DNA of 64,000 nucleotides from Lachnospiraceae bacterium (lineage in GTDB: Bacteria > Bacillota > Clostridia > Lachnospirales > Lachnospiraceae), in contig JBGVFN010000058.1 of the NCBI GenBank assembly GCA_045121095.1, positions 646-64,645 on the forward strand. The letters are read 5' to 3'. Shown one piece after another: positions 1 to 59,385 of the stretch. Numbering within the stretch: position 1 is the stretch's first letter; every line of letters starts with the position of its first letter. The notes beneath the pieces are model-generated. The model was not told where the DNA came from. It saw nothing but the letters and a program-made list of their open reading frames with translations, and searched no databases. The translations under genes and the position numbers were made by a program.

Positions 1-469
1 TTTGGGCATCGTTAACATGCAAACAAAGCTCCAGTGAAGCTTTGTTTGTAGAGCGAGAGCGTGTCTCCGTGTAATGCAGGTCTGTAATGGAGCCTTCACT
101 ATCTATAATTCTCCAAGTAAAATTCACAATACCCCAGAACCTGCTTCACAAGGTACATAATATCAGAGTTTAACGCTTCTCATGTGGAAATGCAACTGGA
201 AATTCTTTTTTACAATTTCTTCCATAATCATGCTCTGCTAATTCATAACAGTTCAGCAGACATTCATAATTTCCTGCGAAATAGTTAAAAAATTCTTAAA
301 AATTGCGTATCCCCTTTTTTATTGCATAGAGAAAAAGATATTGTTATACTTAACCTAACAAATTTCCCATTTATGCAAAGGGATTTGTGAGTATTCCCAT
401 CTGCAGGAAGCTTTGCAGATCTATTACCATCATCTGCTTTGCTAAAGCGTGTTTGAAAAAGGAGGACTT

Positions 470-5718: not shown

Positions 5719-5803
5719 CAGCAGTTCAGCCTTGCCGGACTGCCTTGAATAAATTCAGCAGGTATTCATAATTTCTTTCAGAAATTATTCATTTGGCTAA
5801 ATA
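5719..5803. repeat. REP-like element (GTTCAGC family), degenerate copy
   Basis: gcagttcagccttgccggactgccttgaataaattcagcaggtattcataatttctttcagaaattattcatttggctaaatag. About 85% identical to 59211..59300. Its end supplies the TAG stop of the RACo gene. Confidence 0.8.
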
Positions 5804-12165: not shown

Positions 12166-12290
12166 GTTTTATCCAGGCTTTCGTTTATCCAAGTTTTTCT
12201 TGTTCAAAGTTTTTCTTATCCAAACTTCTTCTTATCCAAGTCTTTCTTGTTCAAAGTTTTTCTTATTCAAACTTCTTCTTATCCAAGTTT
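12166..12290. repeat. 15-bp tandem array (about 8 units, 45-bp higher order) of DnaA-box-like TTATCCA motifs
   Basis: Units include TTATCCAGG, TTATCCAAG, TTGTTCAAA, TTATCCAAA, TTATCCAAG, TTGTTCAAA, TTATTCAAA, TTATCCAAG. The last unit supplies the stop of CDS 12279..12908. Confidence 0.85.
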
Positions 12291-12908
12291 TATTTTTACC
12301 ATTTCTTTGATCACTTCTGCACATTTTTCCATGCCCAGTCTTCCACTGTTCAAAATCAGATCATATGCTTTGGGATCTTTCCATTCCTGTCCGCGGGAAT
12401 AGTATTTGTAATAATCAGAGCGATATTTGTCCGTTTTTAAAATCAGACGCTCTGCTTCTGCATCACCTACGCAAAGGCGTTCCTTTACATTTTCAATGCA
12501 ATAATCCATATCTGCTTCCACAAATACACTGACCACATTAGGATAATCTTTTAATGCAAGATTTCCGCATTTACCGATGATGATGCAGGATTCTGTTTCT
12601 GCCAGATGGCGGATGATTTCTGCCTGAATATTGAACAGGTTATCATCCGAAACAAATCTCTTATCCGTAGGCTTTGCAATACGATTAATATTGGGGAATC
12701 CTGCCAGCATTTTCTGAATATAAGAACCTCTCAGCTTTTCATCTACCTGTGCAAATAACTGTTCATTAATACCGCTGTAATCAGATGCCATACGCAGCAG
12801 CTGATCTTCGTAACAGGGAATTCCCAGTTCTTCGCTCAGATTAATACCGATGGTTTTACCGCCGCTTCCGAAGCCGCGTGAAATAGTAATTACATAGGGT
12901 TTATCCAT
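12279..12908 (-). CDS. Cytidylate kinase-like family P-loop protein (paralog 1)
   Basis: 209 aa. [16 protein letters not shown]-loop. About 60% identical by eye to the CDS at 32460..33098. Confidence 0.65.
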   Translation of the reverse strand: MDKPYVITISRGFGSGGKTIGINLSEELGIPCYEDQLLRMASDYSGINEQLFAQVDEKLRGSYIQKMLAGFPNINRIAKPTDKRFVSDDNLFNIQAEIIRHLAETESCIIIGKCGNLALKDYPNVVSVFVEADMDYCIENVKERLCVGDAEAERLILKTDKYRSDYYKYYSRGQEWKDPKAYDLILNSGRLGMEKCAEVIKEMVKIKLG

Positions 12909-13755: not shown

Positions 13756-14107
13756 AAAAAGACCTCCTTATTTTTTGGGTATTTTGTTCAATTTACACTC
13801 TATTATCAGATTTTTTTTAGTATATCGGATACTTTTTCTTTTCGCAACAAAAATTTTATCTACGCACGTTTTTTGACATTTTGACACTTCCGGGTGTACA
13901 AAATGTCGAATTCGAAACCAGAAGATATGAACTTTGTGCGGATTTACCCTCAATCCATTTTACTTTATACTAAACGCAAGATTAATCGTGACACGTGAAG
14001 ATTGTACAATCAACAAAGTGAAAAGCAACTATTTCGTCTTTGCTGAACCGGCCTGCATAGATTCAGTGAATACGAACAGTTTTCAAAAAAGAAGGAGAGT
14101 TTTTCAT

Positions 14108-17445: not shown

Positions 17446-18501
17446 ATGAGCACTTTCAATAACGATGAACTGAAAATTATTGGCGAATACAGCATGCCCG
17501 GCATTTACGGTGCTCCGGATTTAATCGTACCCAAATATAATTATCCCATCACTCCCAAGGAAAACATGATCCGTATGCTGGAAGGCAAAATGCCTCTGTG
17601 GGTACCCAATCAGGATCTGGACAATAACGCCATTCAGCCTCTGGTAATGCCCGATGCAAAAGCAAGAAACTTCGGCGGAACCGACTGGTTCGGCATTGAA
17701 TGGGTATACGAACCCAATACAAAAGCAGCCATGGTAAAACCCGGATTCAAACGCCTTTCTGACATCACCAACTGGAGAGAAGAAATCGTATGGCCCGACC
17801 TCTCCGCCATTGACTGGCAAAAAGACTACGAAGAAAACTACAAAGACAGAATTGCAGAAGACCGTTTCAGCTATTTTGTCATCGTAAACGGGCTGTTTGA
17901 AAGAACTGCCGATCTGACCTCCTTCGAAGACGCATTCTGCGCACTTCTGGAAGAACCCGAAGAACTCACCGCTTTCTATGACAAGCTGGTAGACTGGCAT
18001 ATCGAATTAATCAAAATTGCCAAAGAAGTTTATCACACGGACATGATTCTGTTCCACGATGACATGGGAACCCAGATCAGCACATTCTTCTCACCTGATC
18101 TGTACGAAGAACTGTTCCTGCCTCAGTACAAAAAAATCACTCAGGCAGCACACGACATGGGCATGTATATCACACTTCACTCCTGTGGATGCATTTCCAC
18201 TCTCATGCCTCTGATCATCGAAGCCGGTTTCGACGCATGGGAAGGCCAGGACAGCGCCAACGATAAAAAAGCCATCATGGATGAATACGGCAAAGACCTG
18301 GCACAGTGCACTCTGTACATGATCCCCGAAACCATGAGTGACGAAGAAGCCATCGCACACATCCATAAAACAGTAGATGAACTGGCCAAAACCGGACGTT
18401 TTGCATGCCGTCTGAGAGACCCCAAAGGCAATCGTTCCGTTAATCTGGCAGAAGAATTATACCGTTACAGCCGTATGAAATATATGGAAATGGCGGAATA
18501 A
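17446..18501 (+). CDS. URO-D family (MtaA/CmuA-like) substrate:corrinoid methyltransferase MT-I
   Basis: 351 aa. FHDDMGTQ...FFSP...LHSCG blocks typical of uroporphyrinogen-decarboxylase-fold methyltransferases. Confidence 0.7.
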   Translation: MSTFNNDELKIIGEYSMPGIYGAPDLIVPKYNYPITPKENMIRMLEGKMPLWVPNQDLDNNAIQPLVMPDAKARNFGGTDWFGIEWVYEPNTKAAMVKPGFKRLSDITNWREEIVWPDLSAIDWQKDYEENYKDRIAEDRFSYFVIVNGLFERTADLTSFEDAFCALLEEPEELTAFYDKLVDWHIELIKIAKEVYHTDMILFHDDMGTQISTFFSPDLYEELFLPQYKKITQAAHDMGMYITLHSCGCISTLMPLIIEAGFDAWEGQDSANDKKAIMDEYGKDLAQCTLYMIPETMSDEEAIAHIHKTVDELAKTGRFACRLRDPKGNRSVNLAEELYRYSRMKYMEMAE

Positions 18502-18570: not shown

Positions 18571-18735
18571 CTAGAGCGTGTTTGAAAAAGGCTTTATACA
18601 GGATGTGCATCCCATTTTGAGATAAATTTCTCTCAAATGAAGGGGCGTAGCAGGCTGCGCTGACTGAATCTGAGAAAAATTTAGCCAAAACTGGGGTGTG
18701 CAGACTGCGTGAATGTTTTTTCAAACACGCTCTAG
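18571..18735. mobile_element. 165-bp MITE-like element, copy 1
   Basis: Terminal inverted repeats ctagagcgtgtttgaaaaa ... tttttcaaacacgctctag. About 92% identical to 31816..31980. No coding capacity (ORF 18521..18724 judged spurious). Confidence 0.8.
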
Positions 18736-18799: not shown

Positions 18800-19708
18800 C
18801 TAAATATATTTCAAATACATTTCATTTAAAATTCGTACATGCAGTTCTTCGTCTTTTATTATGCGCCGCAAATTCTCCCGCACATATTCATCTTTAATCC
18901 ACTGACACTGTTTCTGATAATTCCGGATAGCCTGCTGTTCTCCCTCTATCGCGCGTTTTAATAATCTCAAAAAATCCGTGGAATAAAAATTATATCCTGC
19001 ATTCCAGTACCGCATACGCCCACTTCCTCCCGAAAATCTTCTCGAAAATCCCCTCTGTCCCTGTTCCAAACTCCAAAACCGGGGATCTGCCCCCAAAAGA
19101 CAGGCAAGCTGTCCAAAAATAGACAAATGATGCATCTCAACAATACTGATTTCATGAAAAATCAATGCCGCCTCTTCCATCTCCAAAAATCCCTTTGTAA
19201 CAAATCCATTATATACATACTGCGTAATAGTCGAAAGTTCCGAATGCCTGCCTCCCATGTTCCCTAACATCGCATATGCATAACGCCTGTTCTTCCTTTC
19301 CACCTGTACCGGAGGATAAGGCGCCTCGTCCGCAACTCGAATACCGGAAAAAGGCATTCGTCCAACCACATTTTTCACATCCATATCCTGTACTGCTGTA
19401 TTCTGTGCAGGCATATCCGGTTCCATTATTTCCTGTTTAACCGTCTCCCGTTCGACTGTATCCTGTACAAGCATATCCGGTTCCATCACTTTGTGTTTAA
19501 CTGTATTCTGTTCGGCTGTACCCTGCATAAACACATCCGGTTCCATCGCTTTGTATTTAACTGTATTCTGTTCGGCTGTATTTTGTATAGTTGCATTCCG
19601 TTCTATTGCATTTTGCTGAATCATGCTCTGTGCTTTTTCGCTTTGCACACCTGTATTTCGTGTCATCCGATTTCTTGAAACATTATTTCTCATAGTCGCG
19701 TTTCCCAT
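18800..19708 (-). CDS. Ferritin-like (rubrerythrin/Mn-catalase superfamily) protein with repetitive N-terminal extension
   Basis: The C-terminal ~170 aa carry paired E..H-type helices (EISIVEMHH, KDEELHVR) and the block PYPPVQVERKNRRYAYAMLG...SELSTITQYVY. The N-terminus is four 20-aa repeats. Confidence 0.5.
   Translation of the reverse strand: MGNATMRNNVSRNRMTRNTGVQSEKAQSMIQQNAIERNATIQNTAEQNTVKYKAMEPDVFMQGTAEQNTVKHKVMEPDMLVQDTVERETVKQEIMEPDMPAQNTAVQDMDVKNVVGRMPFSGIRVADEAPYPPVQVERKNRRYAYAMLGNMGGRHSELSTITQYVYNGFVTKGFLEMEEAALIFHEISIVEMHHLSIFGQLACLLGADPRFWSLEQGQRGFSRRFSGGSGRMRYWNAGYNFYSTDFLRLLKRAIEGEQQAIRNYQKQCQWIKDEYVRENLRRIIKDEELHVRILNEMYLKYI
19381..19620. repeat. 60-bp x4 in-frame tandem repeat in the ferritin-like gene
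   Basis: Period exactly 60 bp. Encodes AEQNTVK(Y/H)K(A/V)MEPD-type 20-aa units. Confidence 0.85.
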
Positions 19709-21640: not shown

Positions 21641-21870
21641 TTTACCGCATACTTTCATATCATATATAAACACATGAAAGTCTAATAGCTGCATTATACT
21701 CCATTTGTATTATGTTCTATTTTCTTCATGCTTATCTGTCCATTTTTTGTGTTATCGTGCTATTACGCTTTATTGCAATATATAAATCATTAAAGTATGG
21801 CAATTTCTATCTGCAAGAACTCTCTGTTGTTAAAACCATTTAATTATTTCATGCTTTCATTATTTTAGTG

Positions 21871-21990
21871 TCTATCATTTTATTGTTTATCATTTTATTA
21901 CTTATTGTTTTATTACTTATTGTTTTATTGCTTATTGTTTTATTGCTTATTATTTTATCACTTGTCCCTTTATCGCTCACTTTTTTATAT
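21871..21990. repeat. 15-bp x8 tandem array in the ureF-ureG spacer
   Basis: Units of the type cttattgttttattg. Confidence 0.85.
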
Positions 21991-22746: not shown

Positions 22747-22780
22747 GGTATCCTCCTGCTTGCTATTTTTATATCTAATT

Positions 22781-22978
22781 TCTCAAATAATAGTTTTAAA
22801 TAAGATTTTTCAAATAGTGTCTTTTGAATAATAATTTTCAAATAACGTTTTTCAAATAACGTTTTTCAAATAATAGTTTCCAAATAATAGTTTGCAAATA
22901 ATGATTTCCAAATAATAGTTTCCAAATAATGGTTTCCAAATAATGGTTTTCAAATAACGTCTTTCAAATGATGTTTTA
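22781..22978. repeat. 14-bp x14 tandem array in the ureE-ureF spacer
   Basis: CAAATA recurs at 22839, 22853, 22867 ... 22965 with an exact 14-bp period (units such as ttcaaataacgttt and tccaaataatagtt). Confidence 0.9.
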
Positions 22979-23034
22979 CACAAAATGGTTTTACAGAAAA
23001 TGTTTCTCAAAAATACTAAAAAAAATGTCTCTTG

Positions 23035-23060
23035 GAAAATGTTTCACGTGAAACATTTTC
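23035..23060. other. parS site (perfect 16/16) within a 26-bp perfect palindrome
   Basis: gaaaaTGTTTCACGTGAAACAttttc. Core at 23040..23055. Confidence 0.8.
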
Positions 23061-23135: not shown

Positions 23136-23615
23136 CTAATGTGTATGTGCATTCACTGAAGCTGAAATTCGTTTATCAAAATTTATTTTCATCCTGTTTC
23201 TGTAAACATTTACACCATGCATCTTCCCTAACATCTCATATGTCGGTGCATTATACGGTGTTAAAAATTGATACGATGTATCTCCATAAAATAAAGCTGC
23301 ATGTTTATTTCCAATTTCGTAGCATACTTTGGGAACCATATGTAAATGTTCTGAACAAATTTCTATTACAATCATCTCCGCTTCCAGAATATTCACTGCA
23401 ATCAACTCATCTGCTTCGCACCACAATACATCGCCTTGCCGAAGTCCTTTTGTTAAGATATCATTCCCTAATCGAATTCCAATTTCTACTCCGCAGGATG
23501 TTATTTTTTTATGAAGTTTTTTAAATGCTTCGTACCACTCAATATCCACATAATCTACATGGTATCCATAATATTTTTCTTCTGAAAGATTACCTAAAAT
23601 TGTTTCACAAATCAT
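23136..23615 (-). CDS. ureE: Urease accessory metallochaperone UreE
   Basis: 159 aa. UreE-like fold pattern and C-terminal His residues (NAHTH). Operon context. Confidence 0.8.
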   Translation of the reverse strand: MICETILGNLSEEKYYGYHVDYVDIEWYEAFKKLHKKITSCGVEIGIRLGNDILTKGLRQGDVLWCEADELIAVNILEAEMIVIEICSEHLHMVPKVCYEIGNKHAALFYGDTSYQFLTPYNAPTYEMLGKMHGVNVYRNRMKINFDKRISASVNAHTH

Positions 23616-23787
23616 AGTTCCACCATTCCCTTCTTAGAGCGTGTTTGAAAAATTCTCACAAATCAATACTCTACATCAGCAAAAGCTCTCACTTTTGCGA
23701 GAGCCTTGCCTTATTGAGATGTATATTGCAGTTCACCTTTTCAGGGCTGCAAGAGCAAAAGAGATTAGCAAAATAAAATTTTCGATA

Positions 23788-24480
23788 TTACTCCGTCATG
23801 ACTTTCTGTACCTGACTTACATTTAAAAGCCCTGTTTTACCCTGCATGATAATTTCACCATGTTCCATAACATACAAATAATCAGAAATTCCTAACACAA
23901 AATCTAAGTACTGTTCTACAATTAAAATGGTTAATCCTCGCATTTTATTAATTTTTTGCAGTACATCCCCAATATCCTGAATTACAGAAGGCTGAATTCC
24001 TTCTGTAGGTTCATCTAAAATCAAAATTTTAGGTTCTGCTACCAGCGCTCTGGCAATTGCCAACTGCTGCTGTTGTCCGCCAGAAAGATCCCCTCCCTTT
24101 CTTTTCGCAAACTTAGGTAACACAGGAAACAAATCATAAATATAATCTGGTACTTTTCCTTTTCCTCCAACTGCCTGAAGACCTAATTCCAGATTTTCCT
24201 GAACTGTCATCTGAGCAAAAATATCTCGTCCCTGAGGTACATATCCAATTCCCAACTTTGCTCGATCATAAGTTTTCATTTTAACGATTTCCTGTCCATC
24301 CAGCATAATACTGCCAACGGGTGTTTTTACAACTCCCATAATACTTTTCAATGTGGTACTTTTTCCAACACCATTCCTTCCAATGAGACAAGTAATTTTC
24401 CCCTGCTCTACATTTAAATCCAGGCCCTTAATTACACGACTTTCACCATAATAAGAATCCATTCCTGCTATTTTAAGCAT
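23788..24480 (-). CDS. urtE: Urea ABC transporter ATP-binding protein UrtE
   Basis: ORF 23788..24540 trimmed to MLKIAGMDSYYG (GGAGGAG RBS). Walker A GRNGVGKST and LSGGQQQ signature. Overlaps the urtD stop by 8 nt. Confidence 0.85.
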   Translation of the reverse strand: MLKIAGMDSYYGESRVIKGLDLNVEQGKITCLIGRNGVGKSTTLKSIMGVVKTPVGSIMLDGQEIVKMKTYDRAKLGIGYVPQGRDIFAQMTVQENLELGLQAVGGKGKVPDYIYDLFPVLPKFAKRKGGDLSGGQQQQLAIARALVAEPKILILDEPTEGIQPSVIQDIGDVLQKINKMRGLTILIVEQYLDFVLGISDYLYVMEHGEIIMQGKTGLLNVSQVQKVMTE

Positions 24481-25258
24481 TACGTTCTCCTCCTCTGCCC
24501 AGATATACAGCCTGTACCGTTTCATCTGCCAGTACATCATGAATATTACCCTCCATCAGAACCTTCCCTTCATGGAGAACAGTAACTTTATCCGCTACTT
24601 GTTTCACAAAATCCATATCGTGTTCTACCACAATGATCGTACAGTCTTTTTTTATTTCCTTTAAAATTTCACCCGTTTTAAAAGTTTCCGGCTTACCCAT
24701 TCCCGCTGCAGGCTCATCCAGCATAATAATATTAGGTTTTTGTACCAGCTGCATGGCAATTTCCAGCCACTGTTTTTCTCCATGAGCCAATGAACCTGCT
24801 TTAATGTCTTTTCGATTTTCTAGACCCACCTTTTTTAATGTAATATCAATTAATTCAATCTGCTCTTTGGTCAATTTAAAGAAAATGGAATCCATTACTC
24901 CTTTATGTCCTTTCAATGAAAGAATCATATTATCCAACACTGTCAAATTCACAAAAACAGACGGCACCTGAAATTTACGACCAATTCCTTCTGTCACAAT
25001 TTTATATTCTTTCATGCCAGTAAGGCGAATCTTTTTTTCCCTATCCCTATCTGGATAATACAGTACATTTCCTTCAGTCGGTTTTGTTTTTGCACAAATA
25101 ATATCCAGCAAAGTAGTCTTTCCAGCACCATTTGGCCCTATAAAAAAGTGAATTTTATTTCGTTCCACATCAATATTTACATCTGTCAGTGCATGAAATC
25201 CATCAAAAGTGACACCAATGCCTTTAATTTCCAGAACTACATTTTTCTTTTTATACAT
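24473..25258 (-). CDS. urtD: Urea ABC transporter ATP-binding protein UrtD
   Basis: 261 aa. Walker A GPNGAGKTT. LivG-like. Confidence 0.85.
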   Translation of the reverse strand: MYKKKNVVLEIKGIGVTFDGFHALTDVNIDVERNKIHFFIGPNGAGKTTLLDIICAKTKPTEGNVLYYPDRDREKKIRLTGMKEYKIVTEGIGRKFQVPSVFVNLTVLDNMILSLKGHKGVMDSIFFKLTKEQIELIDITLKKVGLENRKDIKAGSLAHGEKQWLEIAMQLVQKPNIIMLDEPAAGMGKPETFKTGEILKEIKKDCTIIVVEHDMDFVKQVADKVTVLHEGKVLMEGNIHDVLADETVQAVYLGRGGERNA

Positions 25259-26528
25259 TGCATTTTGCCTCCTTCTTCAGGGTTTTCTTCTGATTTTTTA
25301 CTGTTTTACCTGTTGTTTGTTTATCTATTATTCGTTCATCTGTTGTGTATTTATTTGTTGTTATCTTATCTGCTGCTTGCTTATCTATTGTTTGTTTATC
25401 TATTATTTCTTTATTTGTTGTTTGCTCCACAGCATGCTCCACGCACTCTTTTCTAACTCTTTTAGCCTGCATTTTATGAAAAAATGTAGGAATCTGCTCT
25501 GTGACAATGCCCACAATACCACCTTTAAAGAACAAAATCACAACAACAAATAATGCACCAATAATATACTGCCAGATTTCAACTAATGCTCCTGAGCTCA
25601 GATGATATTCACACAGGTTTACCAGAAAAGCACCAATAACAGCACCAATTAATGTTCCACGTCCGCCAATTGCCACCCAGATAACCATTGTAACAGAATA
25701 AGAAATTGTCATCTGCGTCGGAGTAATCGATCCGTTTAAATTTACAAATAATGCACCTGCTAAAGCCGCAAATACTGCTGAAAGGATGTAGACCACATTT
25801 TTGTAACGGCTTACGCAATAGCCTGAAAAATAAGTACGATTCTCCCCATCGCGAATAGCAATCAATAACTTACCAAATTTTCGTGTTACCAAAAAGCTGG
25901 CTAATGCATATACAAGAATCATCACCACCAAAGTCAGATAAAACAAAGAAATCAGATTCCCCTCATTTTTTGGTCCTTTAATGCTGCCAAACAAAGATTT
26001 TATTTCTGTAATACCTACATTACCATTAGTATACGGAGATAATGCAATGAACAAAGAATATGCAGCCCAGGTTAATGCCTGTGAAATAATAGAAAAATAT
26101 ACGCCTTTTACGCGGCTCTTAAAAATGAAATATCCTAAAATACCAGCTAATGCACCTGGGATTAGCAACATAAAAATCAAAGTATTGGGAAGATAGCGAA
26201 ACATTTTCCAAATGGCAGGAAGTTCTGTCAACCCCCCTACCTGCATAAAATCTGTTATCCTACCTCCCGTCGCCTGCAATTTCAGGTACATCCCCATACC
26301 ATAAGCGCCTAATGCGAAATAAAGTCCATGACCTAAACTCAAAATTCCGGTATAACCCCAAATCAAATCCAGCCCAATAGCAACCATAGCAAAACACATG
26401 CATTTCGCTAAATATAATACTAACGTGCTTTTTACCATACCCGCCTGTAAAAGTATTGGCATAACTGCCAATGCAATCACAATAATACTAAAGCAGATAT
26501 TTTTTCCGTTCTTTTTTATTAAATTCAT
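25251..26528 (-). CDS. urtC: Urea ABC transporter permease UrtC with a ~65-aa repetitive C-terminal extension
   Basis: LivM-like permease core. The tail TTNKEIIDKQTIDKQAADKITTNKYTTDERIIDKQTTGK is encoded by the 15-bp array at 25306..25425. Confidence 0.8.
   Translation of the reverse strand: MNLIKKNGKNICFSIIVIALAVMPILLQAGMVKSTLVLYLAKCMCFAMVAIGLDLIWGYTGILSLGHGLYFALGAYGMGMYLKLQATGGRITDFMQVGGLTELPAIWKMFRYLPNTLIFMLLIPGALAGILGYFIFKSRVKGVYFSIISQALTWAAYSLFIALSPYTNGNVGITEIKSLFGSIKGPKNEGNLISLFYLTLVVMILVYALASFLVTRKFGKLLIAIRDGENRTYFSGYCVSRYKNVVYILSAVFAALAGALFVNLNGSITPTQMTISYSVTMVIWVAIGGRGTLIGAVIGAFLVNLCEYHLSSGALVEIWQYIIGALFVVVILFFKGGIVGIVTEQIPTFFHKMQAKRVRKECVEHAVEQTTNKEIIDKQTIDKQAADKITTNKYTTDERIIDKQTTGKTVKNQKKTLKKEAKCNV
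25306..25425. repeat. 15-bp x8 tandem array translated as the UrtC tail
   Basis: Units such as ttatctattgtttgt. Composition resembles the non-coding array at 21871..21990. Confidence 0.85.
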
Positions 26529-29336: not shown

Positions 29337-29392
29337 TTTTTTCAAACGTTTCTTTAAATGTTTTTCAAATGTTCCTTTAAATATTTTTCAAA
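29337..29392. repeat. ~23-bp x2.5 tandem repeat running into a parS
   Basis: ttttcaaacgtttctttaaatg / tttttcaaatgttcctttaaatat / ttttcaaatgtttcac... The units contain a parS half-site-like AA(T/C)GTT(T/C)C. Confidence 0.7.
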
Positions 29393-29408
29393 TGTTTCAC
29401 GTGAAACA
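29393..29408. other. parS site (perfect 16/16)
   Basis: TGTTTCACGTGAAACA between ureC and the urtA promoter. Confidence 0.8.
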
Positions 29409-29497
29409 CTTGATCAATTCCCTAAGGTGATAGCTCGTATCTCGCTCTAGTCAAACAAATTGATCAGCTTTAATATAAAACCATAGATTTTAAACTG

Positions 29498-31219
29498 CTA
29501 AAACAAACTATACATCTGTGTTAAAGGCAATTTTTTTGCCGGTTTGGACACTAGACGCACTCCATCTGCTGACACTTCATATGTTTCCGGATTTACTTTA
29601 ATTTCCGGTGTTTTATCGTTGTATCGCATATCGCATTTTCCTATATTGCGGCATTTTGATACCGGCAGTACTTTCTTCTGTAATTCTAACCTTTCTTTAA
29701 TACCATTCTTATAAGCAGCACTCGAAACAAAGGTCGCACAAGATTCATATTTTGCGCCACCATGAGCAGCAAACATGGGCTGATACATCACCGGCTGAGT
29801 AGTGGGAATTGACGCATTTGCATCCCCCATTTTTGCCGCAACAATCATTCCGCCTTTAATAATAATATCGGGTTTGACTCCAAAAAAGGCAGGATTCCAC
29901 AATACCAGATCTGCCATTTTTCCTACTTCCACAGAACCTACGTAATCTGCCACGCCATGTGTTACTGCAGGATTAATAGTATATTTGGAAATATAACGTT
30001 TCACGCGAAAATTATCATTTCCATTTTCCTGGTCTTCTGGCAATGCCCCACGTTCTTCTTTCATCTTATGAGCAGTCTGCCACGTGCGGGTAATCACTTC
30101 TCCCACACGTCCCATAGCCTGAGAATCAGAGCTCATCATACTAAATACGCCTAGATCATGCAATACATCTTCAGCAGCAATCGTCTCCGGTCGGATTCGT
30201 GAATCTGCAAAAGCTACATCTTCCGGTATTTTGTTATCTAAATGATGACAAACCATTAACATATCCAGATGTTCATCAATAGTGTTAATCGTGAATGGCA
30301 TAGTCGGATTGGTAGAAGACGGCAAAACATTCAAAAAAGAAGCAGCGCGAATAATATCCGGTGCATGTCCGCCTCCAGCCCCTTCTGTATGATACGTATG
30401 AATTGTTCTTCCTGCAATTGCATCAATGGTATCTTCCACACAGCCACCCTCATTTAAAGTATCTGTATGAATCGCCACCTGTACATCATATTCATCCGCC
30501 ACATTTAAACAATGATTGATGACTGCAGGAGTTGCACCCCAATCTTCATGGATTTTCAATCCCATGGCTCCAGCTTCTATCTGTTCCCGAAGGGGACGTT
30601 CATCAGAGCAATTTCCTTTTCCCAGAAATCCAAGATTAATCGGATATTCATCCGCAGCCTTGAGCATCATTCCCAGATTCCACGCCCCTGGAGTACAGGT
30701 AGTTGCATTGGTTCCATCTGCGGGTCCAGTACCACCGCCTATCATAGTTGTCACACCAGAATACAAGGCACAATTAATCTGCTGAGGAGAAATAAAATGA
30801 ATATGTGTATCAATTCCCCCAGCTGTTAAAATCATATTTTCTCCGGCCAAAGCCTCTGTAGAAGCCCCCACTGTCATTCCCGGCGTCACACCATCCATAT
30901 TATCCGGATTTCCAGCCTTTCCGATACCTGAAATTTTTCCATCTTTAATACCAATATCTGCTTTAAAAATACCAGTCGAGTCTACCACCAGACAATTTGT
31001 TATTACCAGATCCAGAACGCCTTCATCACGTGTAGCTTTTACGCTTTGTCCCATTCCATCACGCAATGTTTTTCCACCGCCAAATTTTGCTTCTTCACCA
31101 TAAGTCGTATAATCTTTTTCCACCTCTATAATTAAATTTGTATCCGCCAACCGCACTTTATCACCGGTGGTAGGACCAAACATCATGGCATACTTCTCAC
31201 CAGAAATTATATAGCTCAT
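29498..31219 (-). CDS. ureC: Urease alpha subunit UreC
   Basis: 573 aa. GGIDTHIHF and MVCHHL signatures. Confidence 0.97.
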
Positions 31220-31300: not shown

Positions 31301-31660
31301 TTACAACATTCCTCTTTTTTCTGCCCGATCCAGAGCACACGCTAAAGTTGCTTCACCAGTCTGTCCGCATGTTAAATCATTTAATCCAAATATGCGTTTT
31401 CTTCCGCCAAACTCTACTAAAGAAACGGTCTTCTCCATTCCCGGCTCAAATCGTACAGAAGTACCTGATGGAATATCCAAACGGTAACCATATACCTTTT
31501 CCCGATCAAATTTCAGTAATTTATTTACTTCAAAAAAATGAAAATGTGAACCTACCTGAACTGGTCTGTCCCCTGTATTTACTACTACAATTGAAACTGT
31601 TTTTCTATTAGCGTTCAATATGATATTTCTATCCGCCGGCATAATTTCTCCGATTTTCAT
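31301..31660 (-). CDS. ureB: Urease beta subunit UreB
   Basis: ORF 31301..31675 trimmed to MKIGEI (GGAGG RBS). NTGDRPVQVGSHFHFFE signature. Confidence 0.95.
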   Translation of the reverse strand: MKIGEIMPADRNIILNANRKTVSIVVVNTGDRPVQVGSHFHFFEVNKLLKFDREKVYGYRLDIPSGTSVRFEPGMEKTVSLVEFGGRKRIFGLNDLTCGQTGEATLACALDRAEKRGML

Positions 31661-31815
31661 TATTTTAGCCTCCATCGTTTATGTTCTCTTTGTTTTTCTA
31701 TTAATTCTTATTTCTTTGATACCTTCTTTTCCCGCTAAATTAAATACTTGTTTTTTAACTGCACACTTTACCTTTCAGCTAACGATTCATTTTTACTGTC
31801 TTTTTACGTTTTCAA

Positions 31816-31980
31816 CTAGAGCGTGTTTGAAAAGGCTTTATGCAGGATGTACATCCCATTTTGAGATAAATTTCTCTCAAATGAAGGAGGCGTAGCGGGC
31901 TACGCTGACTGAATCTGAGAAAAATTTAGCCAAAATTGGGGTGTGCAGACTGCGTGAATGATTTTTCAAACACGCTTTAA
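31816..31980. mobile_element. 165-bp MITE-like element, copy 2, inserted between ureA and ureB
   Basis: ctagagcgtgtttgaaaa ... atttttcaaacacgctttaa. Collinear with 18571..18735. Confidence 0.8.
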
Positions 31981-32011
31981 CTCCAATTAACGCATAAATT
32001 TAATGTATAAA

Positions 32012-32314
32012 TTAACGTATAGGATTATGCACCGTTACTAATTTCGTTCCATCAGGAAAAGTGGCTTCTACCTGAACTTCTGTTACCATATCACTAACAC
32101 CCTCCATTACATCCTCTTTTGTAAGGATTTTGGCTCCCAACTGCATCAATTCCACAACTTCCTTTCCATCTCTGGCCATCTCCAGAAGTTCTGAACTAAT
32201 ATACGCAACCGCCTCTACATAATTTAATCTCAAACCTCGTTCTTTTCGCTCCTTTGCCAGCATTCCAGCCATATGAAGCATTAATTTTTCCTGTTCCTTA
32301 GGATTCAAACGCAT
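32012..32314 (-). CDS. ureA: Urease gamma subunit UreA
   Basis: ORF 32012..32449 trimmed to [17 protein letters not shown] (GGAGG RBS). 100 aa, canonical. Confidence 0.95.
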
Positions 32315-32370
32315 ATCATACCTCCACAATATATCTTTTTTATTAGAGCATTTTTCAGACACGCTCCAAA

Positions 32371-32415
32371 CCAAAAAGGTGCATTCAAAAACAATCACTC
32401 GCCTTTGAATGCACC
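32371..32415 (-). terminator. Intrinsic terminator downstream of the cmk-like gene, just upstream of ureA
   Basis: The minus strand reads ggtgcattcaaaggcgagtgattgtttttgaatgcacc followed by TTTTT. Confidence 0.7.
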
Positions 32416-33350: not shown

Positions 33351-35864
33351 CTACAGTAAGCTATCTTTTTTTATTCTCTCACCTCGTCTCACAAGATACA
33401 AAACCACGATTAATATACCTGCAAATGTCATCCACATACCCAACTGTTTTCCAGGTGCCTGATATAATACATCAATTTCATGTATTCCCTGAGATAATTT
33501 CGCTCCTAAAAAACCTTCATTTACCATCTCTATTTCTACCTCATCCCCATCAACCAATACAATAAAATTTTCATCATACGGAATAGAAGTAATCAAATAG
33601 CCATCTTTTTGCATCTCCATATATCCTGATACCACAGATTGCGCCTGTGATTCGTATAACAAATCATTATCCTTTAACAAAAATTTCGATTCATATAACT
33701 CATCACTATCTTTCAATGGAACCGTATATGCTTCTGCCTCAGATATCTCATAAATGCCTTCGCCAAAATTTAATGTAATCTGTTTTTGGCCCGCTGCTAA
33801 CAAAACTGCATATGAAAAAACCGTATTTTCATTATAATAAATATGGCTGTCCGCAGAAAGTTTATTTCTGGAATCTTCCACGTCGATAGTTACATCCTGA
33901 TTTTTCTTATTTTTCACATGAAACCGAACAAATAAAATGCGATTCTGATCCGATACAGGTACTGCTATTTTTATTTTTCCCTGAGGATTACCTTCTATTT
34001 TGCGGGCAATATCAATTTCATGAACGCTGCCCATCTTTTTAATTGGAGACTCTAAACATGCAGTATTATGTTCCTCCTCTACAATTGCATATTCCAGAAA
34101 TGCCAATTGATTATATGGAAAGTTTAATTTTTCATAATCTTTTGTACTCAATATTCTGGATGTCCCATAAATTATGGGCGCTGCATTTTCGTCCTCATGA
34201 AGCTGCATGTCTTGAGAAATCCAATATTTCACTCCCATCATTTTTCGAAATACCACATTCTGATTCAAACCTTCCATTAAAATATTTCGATTTGGCTTTT
34301 CCACATCAAAAATATAATTTCTAAATGTACTATAAAATGAATTATAGGTAGACGAATAGACCGAAGTAATATTTTGTTTCACGTGAAACACTCTATTAAT
34401 ATTTGTAAAGTTTTCTTTTGCAGATCCGTAGTATTCCATTCGATAAAAAGACGTGTCTTCTTCCAAAACATCCTCCATCAGTTGAGAAATCCCCTGCTGT
34501 TTTTTCTTATCTAAATCAGCAGCATCAAGTCCCATATTTTCATCGGCACAGGCAACGCTCATAGCAATCACAGCTATACACAAAGAAGGAATTATAATTA
34601 CTCTAAAATCTTTTTTCCAGTGAAAATATACAAACACAGAAAATGCCACTACAAATAAATCCGTAAGCCAACCAGCAAACTCCACATTTTCCCTTTTAAA
34701 CATGACAAAATACATTAATATCAGCATCAATACCGGTATTATTTTCTTCTGATCTTTCCTGGTTTGCGTTTTCAAAGAAGAAATCCATAACCCCATTTCC
34801 ATACACACCAATGGGATAAAAGGGATCAAGGCTTTACCCCGATTATATAGAAAACCATTCAGCGCATAACCAATAAACGGGGACCAAAGTACAATAACTA
34901 AACTGATACTCAAAACTTTTTCCGATAATTTCCTCTGAAAACATCCTAAAATAATAGCCACCAATGAAATACATCCCAAGCCCATTCCATATTTGTCATG
35001 TAAAATTCTGGACGGTTCACCAACTGGCCAAAAAAGAGCTATAACATCAAAAATTTCTTTTTCGTTTCCATTACTTCGACCATCCAATAAGGCAAATGCC
35101 GTAGGTACAAGAAAAAAACTACTTATTAAAATACTTGTAAAAATAACTGCCACATATCTAAAAGCTTCCTTTAAAATCCCTCTGCACGTCAACTTTTCAT
35201 TTGTCCATTCTGCCTTTTCCAAATAGCAGTAAAGTGCATACAAACAAAGACATATCATTCCACCTATACTAAAATAGAAGCTACTCAAGATCATCAAAAC
35301 AACACTTACACACAGTAAGCCTTTTCGATTTTTGCAAAAATACCAATCCGTTCCTATAAGCCCAAGACATAGAAATGGCATGTAATTTACAAACATTACC
35401 TGCGTACAAAAATGATAAAACAACGGTGCTGCAGTCAGAAATAATAATGTAACTCCAAACCCCAGAGAATGCGATATCTTTTTTTCAGTTACCCAGCAAT
35501 AAAATAATATTCCGGAAAGACCATATGAAATCAAAGAAACGCCCATCATCCAATCATCCATAGAAATCCCCGGAAATAAATACGATAATAGAATACATGG
35601 GTTTAACAATCCATAATAAGCGAAGTTAAAAATATTTTGTCCCCCACCAATCTGCATAGCAAAATCTGGATACAATTCCCCCGTTTCGTAAAACAGCTTT
35701 CGAAAATAATCGGGAAACACGCTGTGCTGCGACAACCAATCAACCTTTGATCCCACAATCTTTCCCTGAAAAAACAAAAAAATAGCCGCCACTCCCGCAG
35801 CAGCTAAAAATAACATTACAATATATCTACATTTAAGGTATTTCAGGTCAGATTTTTCTTTCAT
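33351..35864 (-). CDS. yfhO: YfhO-family polytopic membrane glycosyltransferase
   Basis: 837 aa: many N-terminal TM segments plus a large extracytoplasmic C-terminal domain. Directly downstream of a GT2 CsbB/GtrB-like gene. Confidence 0.7.
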   Translation of the reverse strand: MKEKSDLKYLKCRYIVMLFLAAAGVAAIFLFFQGKIVGSKVDWLSQHSVFPDYFRKLFYETGELYPDFAMQIGGGQNIFNFAYYGLLNPCILLSYLFPGISMDDWMMGVSLISYGLSGILFYCWVTEKKISHSLGFGVTLLFLTAAPLFYHFCTQVMFVNYMPFLCLGLIGTDWYFCKNRKGLLCVSVVLMILSSFYFSIGGMICLCLYALYCYLEKAEWTNEKLTCRGILKEAFRYVAVIFTSILISSFFLVPTAFALLDGRSNGNEKEIFDVIALFWPVGEPSRILHDKYGMGLGCISLVAIILGCFQRKLSEKVLSISLVIVLWSPFIGYALNGFLYNRGKALIPFIPLVCMEMGLWISSLKTQTRKDQKKIIPVLMLILMYFVMFKRENVEFAGWLTDLFVVAFSVFVYFHWKKDFRVIIIPSLCIAVIAMSVACADENMGLDAADLDKKKQQGISQLMEDVLEEDTSFYRMEYYGSAKENFTNINRVFHVKQNITSVYSSTYNSFYSTFRNYIFDVEKPNRNILMEGLNQNVVFRKMMGVKYWISQDMQLHEDENAAPIIYGTSRILSTKDYEKLNFPYNQLAFLEYAIVEEEHNTACLESPIKKMGSVHEIDIARKIEGNPQGKIKIAVPVSDQNRILFVRFHVKNKKNQDVTIDVEDSRNKLSADSHIYYNENTVFSYAVLLAAGQKQITLNFGEGIYEISEAEAYTVPLKDSDELYESKFLLKDNDLLYESQAQSVVSGYMEMQKDGYLITSIPYDENFIVLVDGDEVEIEMVNEGFLGAKLSQGIHEIDVLYQAPGKQLGMWMTFAGILIVVLYLVRRGERIKKDSLL
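34375..34390. other. parS site (perfect 16/16) inside the yfhO coding sequence
   Basis: TGTTTCACGTGAAACA, read as VFHVKQ in YfhO. Confidence 0.7.
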
Positions 35865-36844: not shown

Positions 36845-37130
36845 CTCTGTCTTCCTCTAATAAATAATAAATCGAGTATCTTTCTCATGCGCTTTAGGTA
36901 CTCCCGGTTCTGAATGCCTTCTAATTTTTGAATCCATACAATTAAAAAGGCCCAAAGAATATGTGTATATTCAATTACTGCCTTTACACACATTCCCTAG
37001 ACCTTAAAATACCAAATACTACCACCTTACACAATATAATTAAATGTATTTTAAAACAATATTAAAGATCTCAATTGAAAATTTGCACTTTCTTTTGATA
37101 TTTTTAAATATATTTAACCTTTTATTTTTT

Positions 37131-37281
37131 CTATTTCTTTTATTTTTGCATTTCTTATTTTTTGCATTTCTTATTTTTTCTATTTCTTTTATTTTTGCAT
37201 TTCTTTTATTTTTGCATTTCTTTTATTTTTGTATTTCTTATATTTTTGTATTTCTTATATTTTTGCATTTTTCTTATTCTG
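37131..37281. repeat. 16-17-bp x9 tandem array
   Basis: Units gcatttcttttattttt / ctatttcttttattttt. The last unit overlaps the spmA stop. Confidence 0.85.
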
Positions 37282-38422: not shown

Positions 38423-38564
38423 TTTTCTTTAATATTTTTCTCCTATTTTTTCCGGATACTTTATACTACAAAATACTTCTCTTCTACTTTTCCCAGACAC
38501 GCCCTGAAGCAGAGCATGCCTGAATGTTTTTCAGACACGCTCTAATATACTTTACAGGCACACT

Positions 38565-42391: not shown

Positions 42392-42435
42392 AAAGCCTGT
42401 GAAAATGTTTCACGTGAAACATTTTCACAGGCTTT
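42392..42435. terminator. 44-bp perfect palindrome between convergent genes with a perfect parS at its apex
   Basis: aaagcctgtgaaaaTGTTTCACGTGAAACAttttcacaggcttt. Core at 42406..42421. Confidence 0.8.
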
Positions 42436-43761: not shown

Positions 43762-43805
43762 AAACGTCTATGAAATGTTTCACGTGAAACATTTTATAGA
43801 CGTTT
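43762..43805. other. parS site (perfect 16/16) at the apex of a 44-bp near-perfect palindrome
   Basis: aaacgtctatgaaaTGTTTCACGTGAAACAttttatagacgttt (1 mismatch). Core at 43776..43791. Confidence 0.8.
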
Positions 43806-43825
43806 AAGCCATACAAATGGCTTTC

Positions 43826-46428: not shown

Positions 46429-46481
46429 GCCTTGGCTGAACTGTCTTGAATAAATTCAGCAGGATGGCGCTGAACTTTGTA
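46429..46481. repeat. REP-like element (GTTCAGC family)
   Basis: taacagttcagccttggctgaactgtcttgaataaattcagcagg. Near-identical to 59211..59250. Confidence 0.8.
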
Positions 46482-46581
46482 TATTGAGGACACTTATCTT
46501 TATTTTCCTATTAAACTTTTCAATCTGAAAACTGAACTCATTATAACACTATTCAAAATACAATTCTACGTTTTTTTTGAT

Positions 46582-46597
46582 TGTTTCACGTGAAACA
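46582..46597. other. parS site (perfect 16/16)
   Basis: TGTTTCACGTGAAACA in the rsmG-parA spacer. Confidence 0.8.
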
Positions 46598-46860
46598 TTT
46601 ATAAAGATTATAAAAATAATCTAAACTTATATTTTTTGAAGTAAAGCAATTTGACAATTGCCGAACTATCTGAAATTCATTCAACGGACATTCACAATTT
46701 TAATATAACCTTATATCCCGCTGAATAAATACAAAAAAACGAATTACTATCTGTTATCTTTGCTATTATAGATTCCATGTATATCTACAATTCTAAAGTA
46801 CATTCATAACAAATACTAATTCGTTTCTTTTGTGTATTCTCATTTCAGTTTAACTTCATT

Positions 46861-59210: not shown

Positions 59211-59385
59211 AACAGTTCAGCTTGGCTGAACTGTCTTGAATAAATTCAGCAAGCATTCATAATTTTCTTCGAAAATTATTCATTTGGCTAAACGCCAAAT
59301 ACGATTTTCTGCCCAAAATACCGTTTACAAGCAAGCTTGACACGGTATTTTGAACAAAAATCATGCTTGGCTGAATAGTTGCAAA
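59211..59385. repeat. Composite REP-like element (GTTCAGC family), longest copy
   Basis: aacagttcagcttggctgaactgtcttgaataaattcagcaagcattcataattttcttcgaaaattattcatttggctaaacgccaaa..., plus a caaaataccgt/acggtattttg hairpin and a second cttggctgaa. Confidence 0.8.

Follow-up and report, generated by a model that had tools for sequence, protein, structure and literature searches.

A MITE family of gut Lachnospiraceae, sharing its ends with an IS5-family element, whose hairpin pairing is kept on one strand

A palindromic unit lying between ureA and ureB in a Lachnospiraceae genome raises the questions of what it is, how it came to lie there and whether its fold is under selection. We analyzed the surrounding 64,000 nucleotides, hereafter the window, in which a first-pass annotation had described a MITE-like element in the ureA-ureB spacer with a second copy elsewhere. 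Both copies were found where it had placed them (Table 1). Compared from end core to end core, they agree at 150 of 158 positions (95%), so that the claim of high identity holds at a value above the ~92% originally given. The terminal repeats are likewise real, but the 17-19 bp drawn for them overran the element: the outer 'CTA' is target sequence, namely a C followed by the duplicated TA, and the element proper of the family reads GAGCGTG...CACGCTC, with 16-nt inverted repeats that both window copies carry as GAGCGTGTTTGAAAAA / TTTTTCAAACACGCTC. The right repeat of copy A ends in T, against C in the family. Copy B is flanked by TA at 18572-18573 and 18733-18734, within C-TA...TA-G, and sits between convergent ORFs at 17446-18501 (+) and 18800-19708 (-). 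Similarity between the two copies ends exactly at the element ends and their flanks are unrelated, indicating that they are not inside a larger duplication. A profile search with nhmmer recovered only these two full copies in the 64-kb window, scoring copy A at 129.8 bits on the + strand and 65.4 bits on the - strand, and the 14-mer AGCGTGTTTGAAAA occurs there 6 times exactly and 10 times with up to 2 mismatches (0.93 expected). As had been proposed, the unit has no coding capacity: no credible ORF was found within it, only a spurious 91-aa ORF entering from outside, and column variation among aligned copies tracks base pairing, not codons.

Table 1 Features of the urease region and of the repeat family in the window (positions counted from the first letter of the window).
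Feature	Position	Strand	Remarks
Solo terminal repeat TA/AAGCGTGTTTGAAAAAGG	445..462	+	Runs into a GGAGG ribosome-binding site; ORF start 471
MITE copy B, element proper	18574..18732	+	159 nt
Solo terminal repeat TTA/GAGCGTGTTTGAAAAAT	23637..23653	+	Spacer between ORFs 23788-24540 and 23136-23615
ureC, urease alpha subunit, 573 aa	29498..31219	-	PF00449
ureB, urease beta subunit, 119 aa	31301..31660	-	PF00699
Copy A, left duplicated target TA	31817..31818	.	Filled/empty site alignment
MITE copy A, element proper GAGCGTG...CACGCTT	31819..31977	+	159 nt; ureA-ureB spacer
Copy A, left terminal inverted repeat GAGCGTGTTTGAAAA	31819..31833	+	Matches left end (end 1) of the IS
Copy A, right terminal inverted repeat TTTTTCAAACACGCTT	31962..31977	+	
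Copy A, right duplicated target TA	31978..31979	.	Filled/empty site alignment
ureA, urease gamma subunit, 100 aa	32012..32314	-	PF00547
Mini remnant GAGCGTGTCTGAAAAATGCTC	32346..32366	-	Terminal repeat + GCTC, then TA; in ureA leader, ~30 nt before start codon
Mini remnant GAGCGTGTCTGAAAAACATTCAGGCATGCTC, 31 nt	38512..38542	-	Resembles right end + terminal GCTC

The gap between ureA and ureB measures 351 nt, in agreement with the ~350 bp first reported. Its attribution to the insertion is correct only in part, as the unit with one TA contributes 161 nt and the spacer without the element is still ~190-200 nt long. To compare the locus among relatives, we used an exact look-up of the UreA protein, which returned 10 contigs; their strains share 97-99.98% identity with the window. 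The unit was present in the ureA-ureB spacer of seven contigs and absent from three (L156, L161 and L162). Alignment of the empty site GGAGATAGTTG with the filled site GGAGT-TA[element]TA-GTTG (L153 and others) revealed a clean insertion with TA duplicated. Given that the site is empty in near-identical strains, the arrival of the unit between ureA and ureB is recent and polymorphic among strains, which lets the element serve readily as a strain marker and may make for differences in the expression of urea metabolism.

To determine how far the family extends, we scanned genomes for both exact 14-nt end cores separated by a spacer of 115-145 nt; by construction, this search fixes the end sequences and part of the length conservation, and the copy numbers it yields are lower bounds. 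The scan returned at least 119 loci, occupying at least 114 different sites; Lachnospiraceae account for nearly all of them, and several genomes hold at least 4-6 copies. Among the matches listed, flanks were unrelated in 114 of 116, and the carriers comprised Blautia, Anaerobutyricum hallii, Otoolea muris, Eubacterium plexicaudatum, Robinsoniella, Dorea, Roseburia, Acetatifactor, Hungatella, Eisenbergiella and many MAGs. The distance between outer core edges was exactly 158 nt in 101 of 121 copies among the matches listed, and the closest relative of the window copies among them was only 79% identical; a metagenome scan with an internal 22-mer added one further site, L163, of the window's own subfamily. 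TA was found on both flanks in 101 of the 116 copies among the matches listed, the leading flank pairs there being (CTA,TAG) with 66, (TTA,TAG) with 17 and (CTA,TAA) with 13. The flanks thus follow the pattern Y-TA/G...C/TA-R around a YTAR target, weakly palindromic in its outer bases (g-y-n-C/TA/G-n-r-c), and the pairing of a left TTA with a right TAG identifies the duplication as TA rather than the 4-bp YTAR. BLAST of the unit against a plasmid collection gave no match, and against phages a single one (MT839353, 77%, unannotated). Together, the small size (159 bp, where prokaryotic MITEs stay below ~300 bp), the dispersal over many sites, the TA duplication, the empty site and a cognate IS5-family element, described below, bear out the original MITE reading.

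That cognate element emerged from a scan of viral contigs, where a ~880-bp insertion sequence (IS) carrying the 16-17-nt ends of the MITE was found in full at L004 2281-3163 and L008 527-1410; the first-pass annotation had proposed to look for a transposase with matching inverted repeats, and this IS5-family element has such ends. The 16-17-nt ends are identical in IS copies of L004, L008 and L174-L180, which are flanked by CTAG/CTAA. CTAG-type flanks adjoin at least 20 IS ends in viral contigs, and exact-end copies also occur on bacterial contigs, one of them 1.06 Mb long with housekeeping neighbours. The IS contains two ORFs of 134 aa and 112-115 aa with Pfam matches to DUF4096 and DDE_Tnp_1 (PF13340, PF01609). 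OrfA scored 137.2 bits against NF033580 (cut-off 110) and OrfB 107.2 bits at profile positions 143-258, and an A6G run near the end of OrfA is a likely frameshift site. In ISfinder, elements of the IS427-type subgroup measure ~0.8-1 kb and have two ORFs with a frameshift, GAG ends and a 2-4-bp duplication; for the present IS we observed ~880 bp, two ORFs, an A6G run, GAG ends and a TA duplication, its frameshift being putative, and it may belong to that subgroup. Among known elements, the parent comes close to the two-ORF, ~0.8-1 kb IS5-family insertion sequences (NF033580, possibly IS427-group-like), with DUF4096 in OrfA, DDE_Tnp_1 in OrfB and a short duplication made at a CTAG-type target. 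The MITE, unlike this parent, encodes nothing, and the two share only 17 nt at the end upstream of orfA and ~22 nt at the other end, with nothing in common between. Because the 17 nt correspond to the end upstream of orfA, the 'forward' orientation of the MITE is the transposase-sense orientation. The identity of ends and target makes this IS the likely mobiliser of the MITE. A single contig, L117 from Eisenbergiella, carries both the MITE and an IS-like end, this one case of co-residence lying at a contig end; tblastn found no IS transposase in the 64-kb window or in the 8-kb MITE loci, and a plasmid BLAST with the IS as query recovered no more than 94 nt of a Lactiplantibacillus IS5 transposase gene. 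Another candidate driver, transposase P0009, is 92% identical and was rejected, as the sister IS that encodes it has other ends, GAGCGTGTCTTAAAAAT; this pair indicates that ends diverge faster than the protein. The sister IS also occurs in head-to-tail tandem (L164 2170-3690, L165 3001-4520, L169 and L170), where the second copy begins inside the left end and no terminal repeats separate the copies.

The first-pass annotation had remarked on a U-A versus U-G difference in the apical stem of the two copies and had read it as a hint of structure at the RNA level. The difference is real, with the copy labels swapped in that account, and the hint is strongly borne out across the family by covariation and by an asymmetry between G.U and A.C pairs. 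Each window copy folds into one long hairpin (z -8.9 to -12.4 against shuffles). In an alignment of 116 copies, the consensus fold comprises 55 pairs, 33 of which show compensatory double changes; one pair, for example, occurs as C-G 49, A-U 32 and G-C 19, and another as G-C 78 and A-U 32. Paired cells amount to 96.6%, as against 87.6% in shuffles and ~40% with the partners slid. The invariance of the 14 outer pairs is a product of the search, which demanded exact end cores. Seven pairs are conserved as G.U, and the hairpin alignment also contains conserved internal loops.

Moreover, this conservation distinguishes the two strands. Over all pairs we counted 817 G.U cells against 55 A.C cells, A.C being what a G.U on the other strand would appear as, and the forward fold was the more stable in all 111 distinct sequences (means of -94 vs -63 kcal/mol). 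For copy A, the RNA fold reached -85 kcal/mol on the + strand and -62 kcal/mol on the reverse strand, and with DNA parameters the values were -41 and -34 kcal/mol, so that the strands differ by 23 kcal/mol as RNA and by 7 kcal/mol as DNA. Parsimony on a neighbour-joining tree assigned 115 changes from Watson-Crick to G.U, 32 from Watson-Crick to A.C, and 112 double changes. Mutation bias was rejected as the source of the G.U excess, given that unpaired columns showed no excess of the corresponding transitions (55 vs 71); the strand asymmetry of the hairpin is hence selective. Pairing is kept on one strand only, and that is the transposase-sense strand. Selection for a symmetric DNA cruciform would leave no strand asymmetry and is thereby excluded; the alignment suggests that the constraint acts on the forward strand in single-stranded form, either as RNA or as single-stranded DNA.

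We then asked how copies are oriented relative to host genes, whose directions were called by a longest-ORF heuristic and not by a gene finder. In tandem-gene contexts among the matches listed, 40 copies were antisense and 12 sense (p = 1.3e-4), and a ratio of ~3:1 was also obtained there under stricter ORF filters; convergent contexts (28-30) outnumbered divergent ones (17) among the same matches. In Firmicutes, orientation to genes is confounded with orientation to replication. As most copies are antisense to their neighbours, host read-through could not be the chief source of any forward-strand RNA. Copy A conforms to the majority, with its forward orientation on the + strand and antisense to the ure genes. 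The constrained strand being antisense to the ure mRNA, the long RNA hairpin first predicted there would take its weaker form: if ureABC are transcribed together, a hairpin of -62 kcal/mol would lie between ureA and ureB. A simple scan of 31500-32400 found no promoter-like or terminator-like site, and the insertion is therefore probably tolerated, at most altering mRNA processing. Two features go together in this family: the hairpin is strongly constrained on one strand, and resident copies tend to keep that strand out of host transcripts.

Collectively, these observations make it very probable that the unit is a non-autonomous DNA transposon (MITE), presumably moved by an IS5-family transposase and endowed with a selected one-strand hairpin. 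In the mechanism we propose, the transposase of the IS, supplied in trans, would move the MITE by cut-and-paste, and a single-stranded form of its forward strand, most simply RNA, would be under selection in lineages that are still spreading. Copies that place the strong hairpin in host mRNAs or on an exposed DNA strand would be counter-selected, which would leave the ~3:1 antisense bias. More tentatively, the hairpin may be, rather than a passive palindrome, a functional single-stranded element riding on a DDE-type MITE, either a mobile structured RNA or a DNA hairpin whose action depends on strand and replication. If so, a mobile transposase-sense RNA could, for example, serve in RNA processing or stability or regulate the parent IS, and the DNA-hairpin version would mean that transposition of an IS5-family derivative depends on strand and replication; either version would explain both the selection on one strand and the avoidance of that strand in host transcripts by resident copies.

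In a different view, the unit would be first of all a gene for a structured RNA, or a cis-regulatory RNA, and its mobility incidental, the transposon ends being the vehicle only; the forward strand would be transcribed from its own or a flanking promoter and act as an sRNA, for example antisense to host operons or on the parent IS. We regard this as unlikely, even though the strand-specific covariation with its conserved G.U pairs and internal loops, the fixed length (exactly 158 nt in 101 of 121 copies among the matches listed), the ~3:1 antisense placement of the forward strand and the larger strand asymmetry with RNA than with DNA energies would all suit it. Set against these, a simple scan found no sigma-70-like promoter in or beside copy A, the alignment has no conserved -10/-35 pair, no U-tract terminator follows the full hairpin and Rfam has no matching family; furthermore, the target-site duplications, the empty sites and the cognate IS fully explain the dispersal.

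Less probable again is that the forward strand folds as single-stranded DNA in the lagging-strand template and thereby promotes excision or transposition, in which case pairing would be selected on that strand in active lineages and resident copies so oriented would be depleted. The one-strand constraint, in excluding the symmetric cruciform, is compatible with such a role, as is the orientation bias, which fits replication as well as transcription because genes are mostly co-oriented with replication. For all three copies located in the complete genomes CP143549.1 and AP025576.1 among the matches listed, the forward strand would be the leading-strand template given an oriC close to coordinate 1, a sample of three that is not significant, but two E. 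plexicaudatum scaffold copies do not fit if the origin is assumed at coordinate 1. Moreover, double-stranded ends are the known substrate of IS5-family DDE transposases, G.T pairs add little stability to DNA, whose two strands differ by only 7 kcal/mol in their folds, and elements that share the terminal repeats without a palindromic interior exist (L066, L113, L084 and L136). The remaining reading, a segmental duplication or a chance palindrome, has a negligible probability in view of the unrelated flanks, the more than 100 independent sites, the empty site and a fold z of about -10; the reservation voiced at the outset, that only two copies might exist within a larger duplication, falls with it.

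We also compared the family with known repeats. The Rfam search that had been recommended, run over the whole window, gave no match at gathering thresholds over either MITE copy, and at E <=10 over 31600-32100 its best hit was a plant microRNA hairpin (26 bits, threshold 90). The searched literature held no description of the end sequence or of MITEs in Lachnospiraceae/Clostridiales, and MITE reviews listed no clostridial family. In line with the earlier failure to recognise a named family, this one is apparently undescribed so far, and it is found widely in gut Lachnospiraceae. Its host phylum and end sequence appear to differ from those of Correia, ERIC, RUP and BOX elements. ERIC elements are ~127 bp long and belong to enterobacteria, a different phylum; they are not known to have a clear target-site duplication or a transposase, and Correia elements have no known autonomous parent.

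Each separate property of the family has a precedent in bcr1, Correia, ERIC or Chunjie, which makes it a bacterial MITE of familiar type. A parallel in host and size is bcr1 of the Bacillus cereus group, a ~155-bp MITE-like repeat flanked by 5-bp direct repeats (PMC3184786). It resembles our element in its Firmicute host, near-equal size, intergenic dispersal, variability between strains and long RNA-level fold kept by compensatory changes, and differs in having 5-bp direct repeats and a cruciform-like shape (PMC3184786) in place of a 2-bp TA and one long hairpin. The present MITE, unlike bcr1, has a cognate IS5-family element with identical ends, and the two are unrelated in sequence. In Neisseria, Correia elements (CREE/NEMIS) are also of MITE type and form a long transcript hairpin, which is an RNase III substrate and alters the expression of co-transcribed genes; they are, however, proteobacterial and unrelated in sequence, and they carry promoters and an IHF site (PMC10969869), neither of which is evident here. 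ERIC/IRU elements, like our MITE, are imperfect palindromes in transcribed intergenic regions, and their effect on mRNA decay varies with orientation, only one of which exposes an RNase E site (PMC10969869). According to the same review, Chunjie of Geobacter uraniireducens, a recently active MITE, landed inside an operon and left the operon structure intact, its other copies being intergenic, which parallels the recent landing and the intergenic copies described here; Chunjie differs in its 178-235 bp, host and sequence, and no strand-specific covariation is reported for it there (PMC10969869).

The family adds a well-defined MITE and its likely IS5-family driver to Lachnospiraceae, which are dominant gut bacteria. 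It also suits an old question, namely whether the structure of bacterial palindromic repeats is selected and at what level, for which it provides an unusually clean data set: over 100 independent copies, 33 pairs that covary, constraint on a single strand and a biased orientation.

Several further observations concern the urease region. The empty spacers are AT-rich, and their ~190-200 nt is an unusual length for normally adjacent genes (window 31661-31815 and 31981-32011; L156 2600-2800); outside the MITE, the spacer had no Rfam, promoter or terminator match, and ureB is preceded by a GGAGG ribosome-binding site 8 nt upstream. A 12-nt unit in this spacer, TTAATTTATGTA, differs by one in tandem copy number between strains. 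In L157 (1900-3690), the same spacer contains, adjoining the unit, a ~1.9-kb IS of another family, which encodes a 482-aa transposase on the opposite strand with rve / DDE_Tnp_IS240 matches and lies just upstream of the ureB ribosome-binding site. Insertions seem to have landed in this spacer repeatedly. An Rfam match to 5_ureB_sRNA at 30769-31068 (+), antisense to the 5' part of ureC, scored 84.7 bits (gathering threshold 40) and probably reflects how well the region coding for urease alpha is conserved, not an antisense RNA gene.

In addition to its two full copies, the window holds four remnants of the terminal repeat (Table 1). Two of the four read 'repeat + GCTC + TA', much as a deletion of the interior would leave them. 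The urease/urea-transporter cluster contains two, namely the solo repeat at 23637 and the mini remnant in the ureA leader, and like remnants were found in other genomes. The stretch following the solo end at 23637 was rejected as a degenerate copy, since only the 19-22-nt end matches. The same terminal repeats also bound unrelated, non-palindromic interiors in MAGs from other phyla, with CTAG/TTAG flanks (L066 6295-6467, Anaerolineae; L113 2996-3158, Ignavibacteriales), as well as ~168-nt internal-deletion derivatives of the IS (L084 7313-7480; L136 6428-6594), and one set of ends appears to serve several non-autonomous elements.

Other repeats in the window are of different kinds. A 16-nt perfect palindrome, TGTTTCACGTGAAACA, recurs at 29379-29414, 34375-34404, 42392-42427, 43762-43807 and 46568-46614, mostly in intergenic positions and once between ureC and the downstream transporter gene, and looks like a putative binding site for a regulator. 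A second dispersed repeat of ~80 nt, unrelated to the MITE, is present at 5722-5801 and 59213-59292 (86% identical), with partial copies at 252-281, 14038-14068 and 46431-46461. Finally, several arrays of short tandem repeats, their period 14-17 nt and not divisible by three, occur at 12169-12309, 21856-21965, 22756-23042, 25282-25421 and 37088-37270, some of them in or beside urease accessory and transporter genes.
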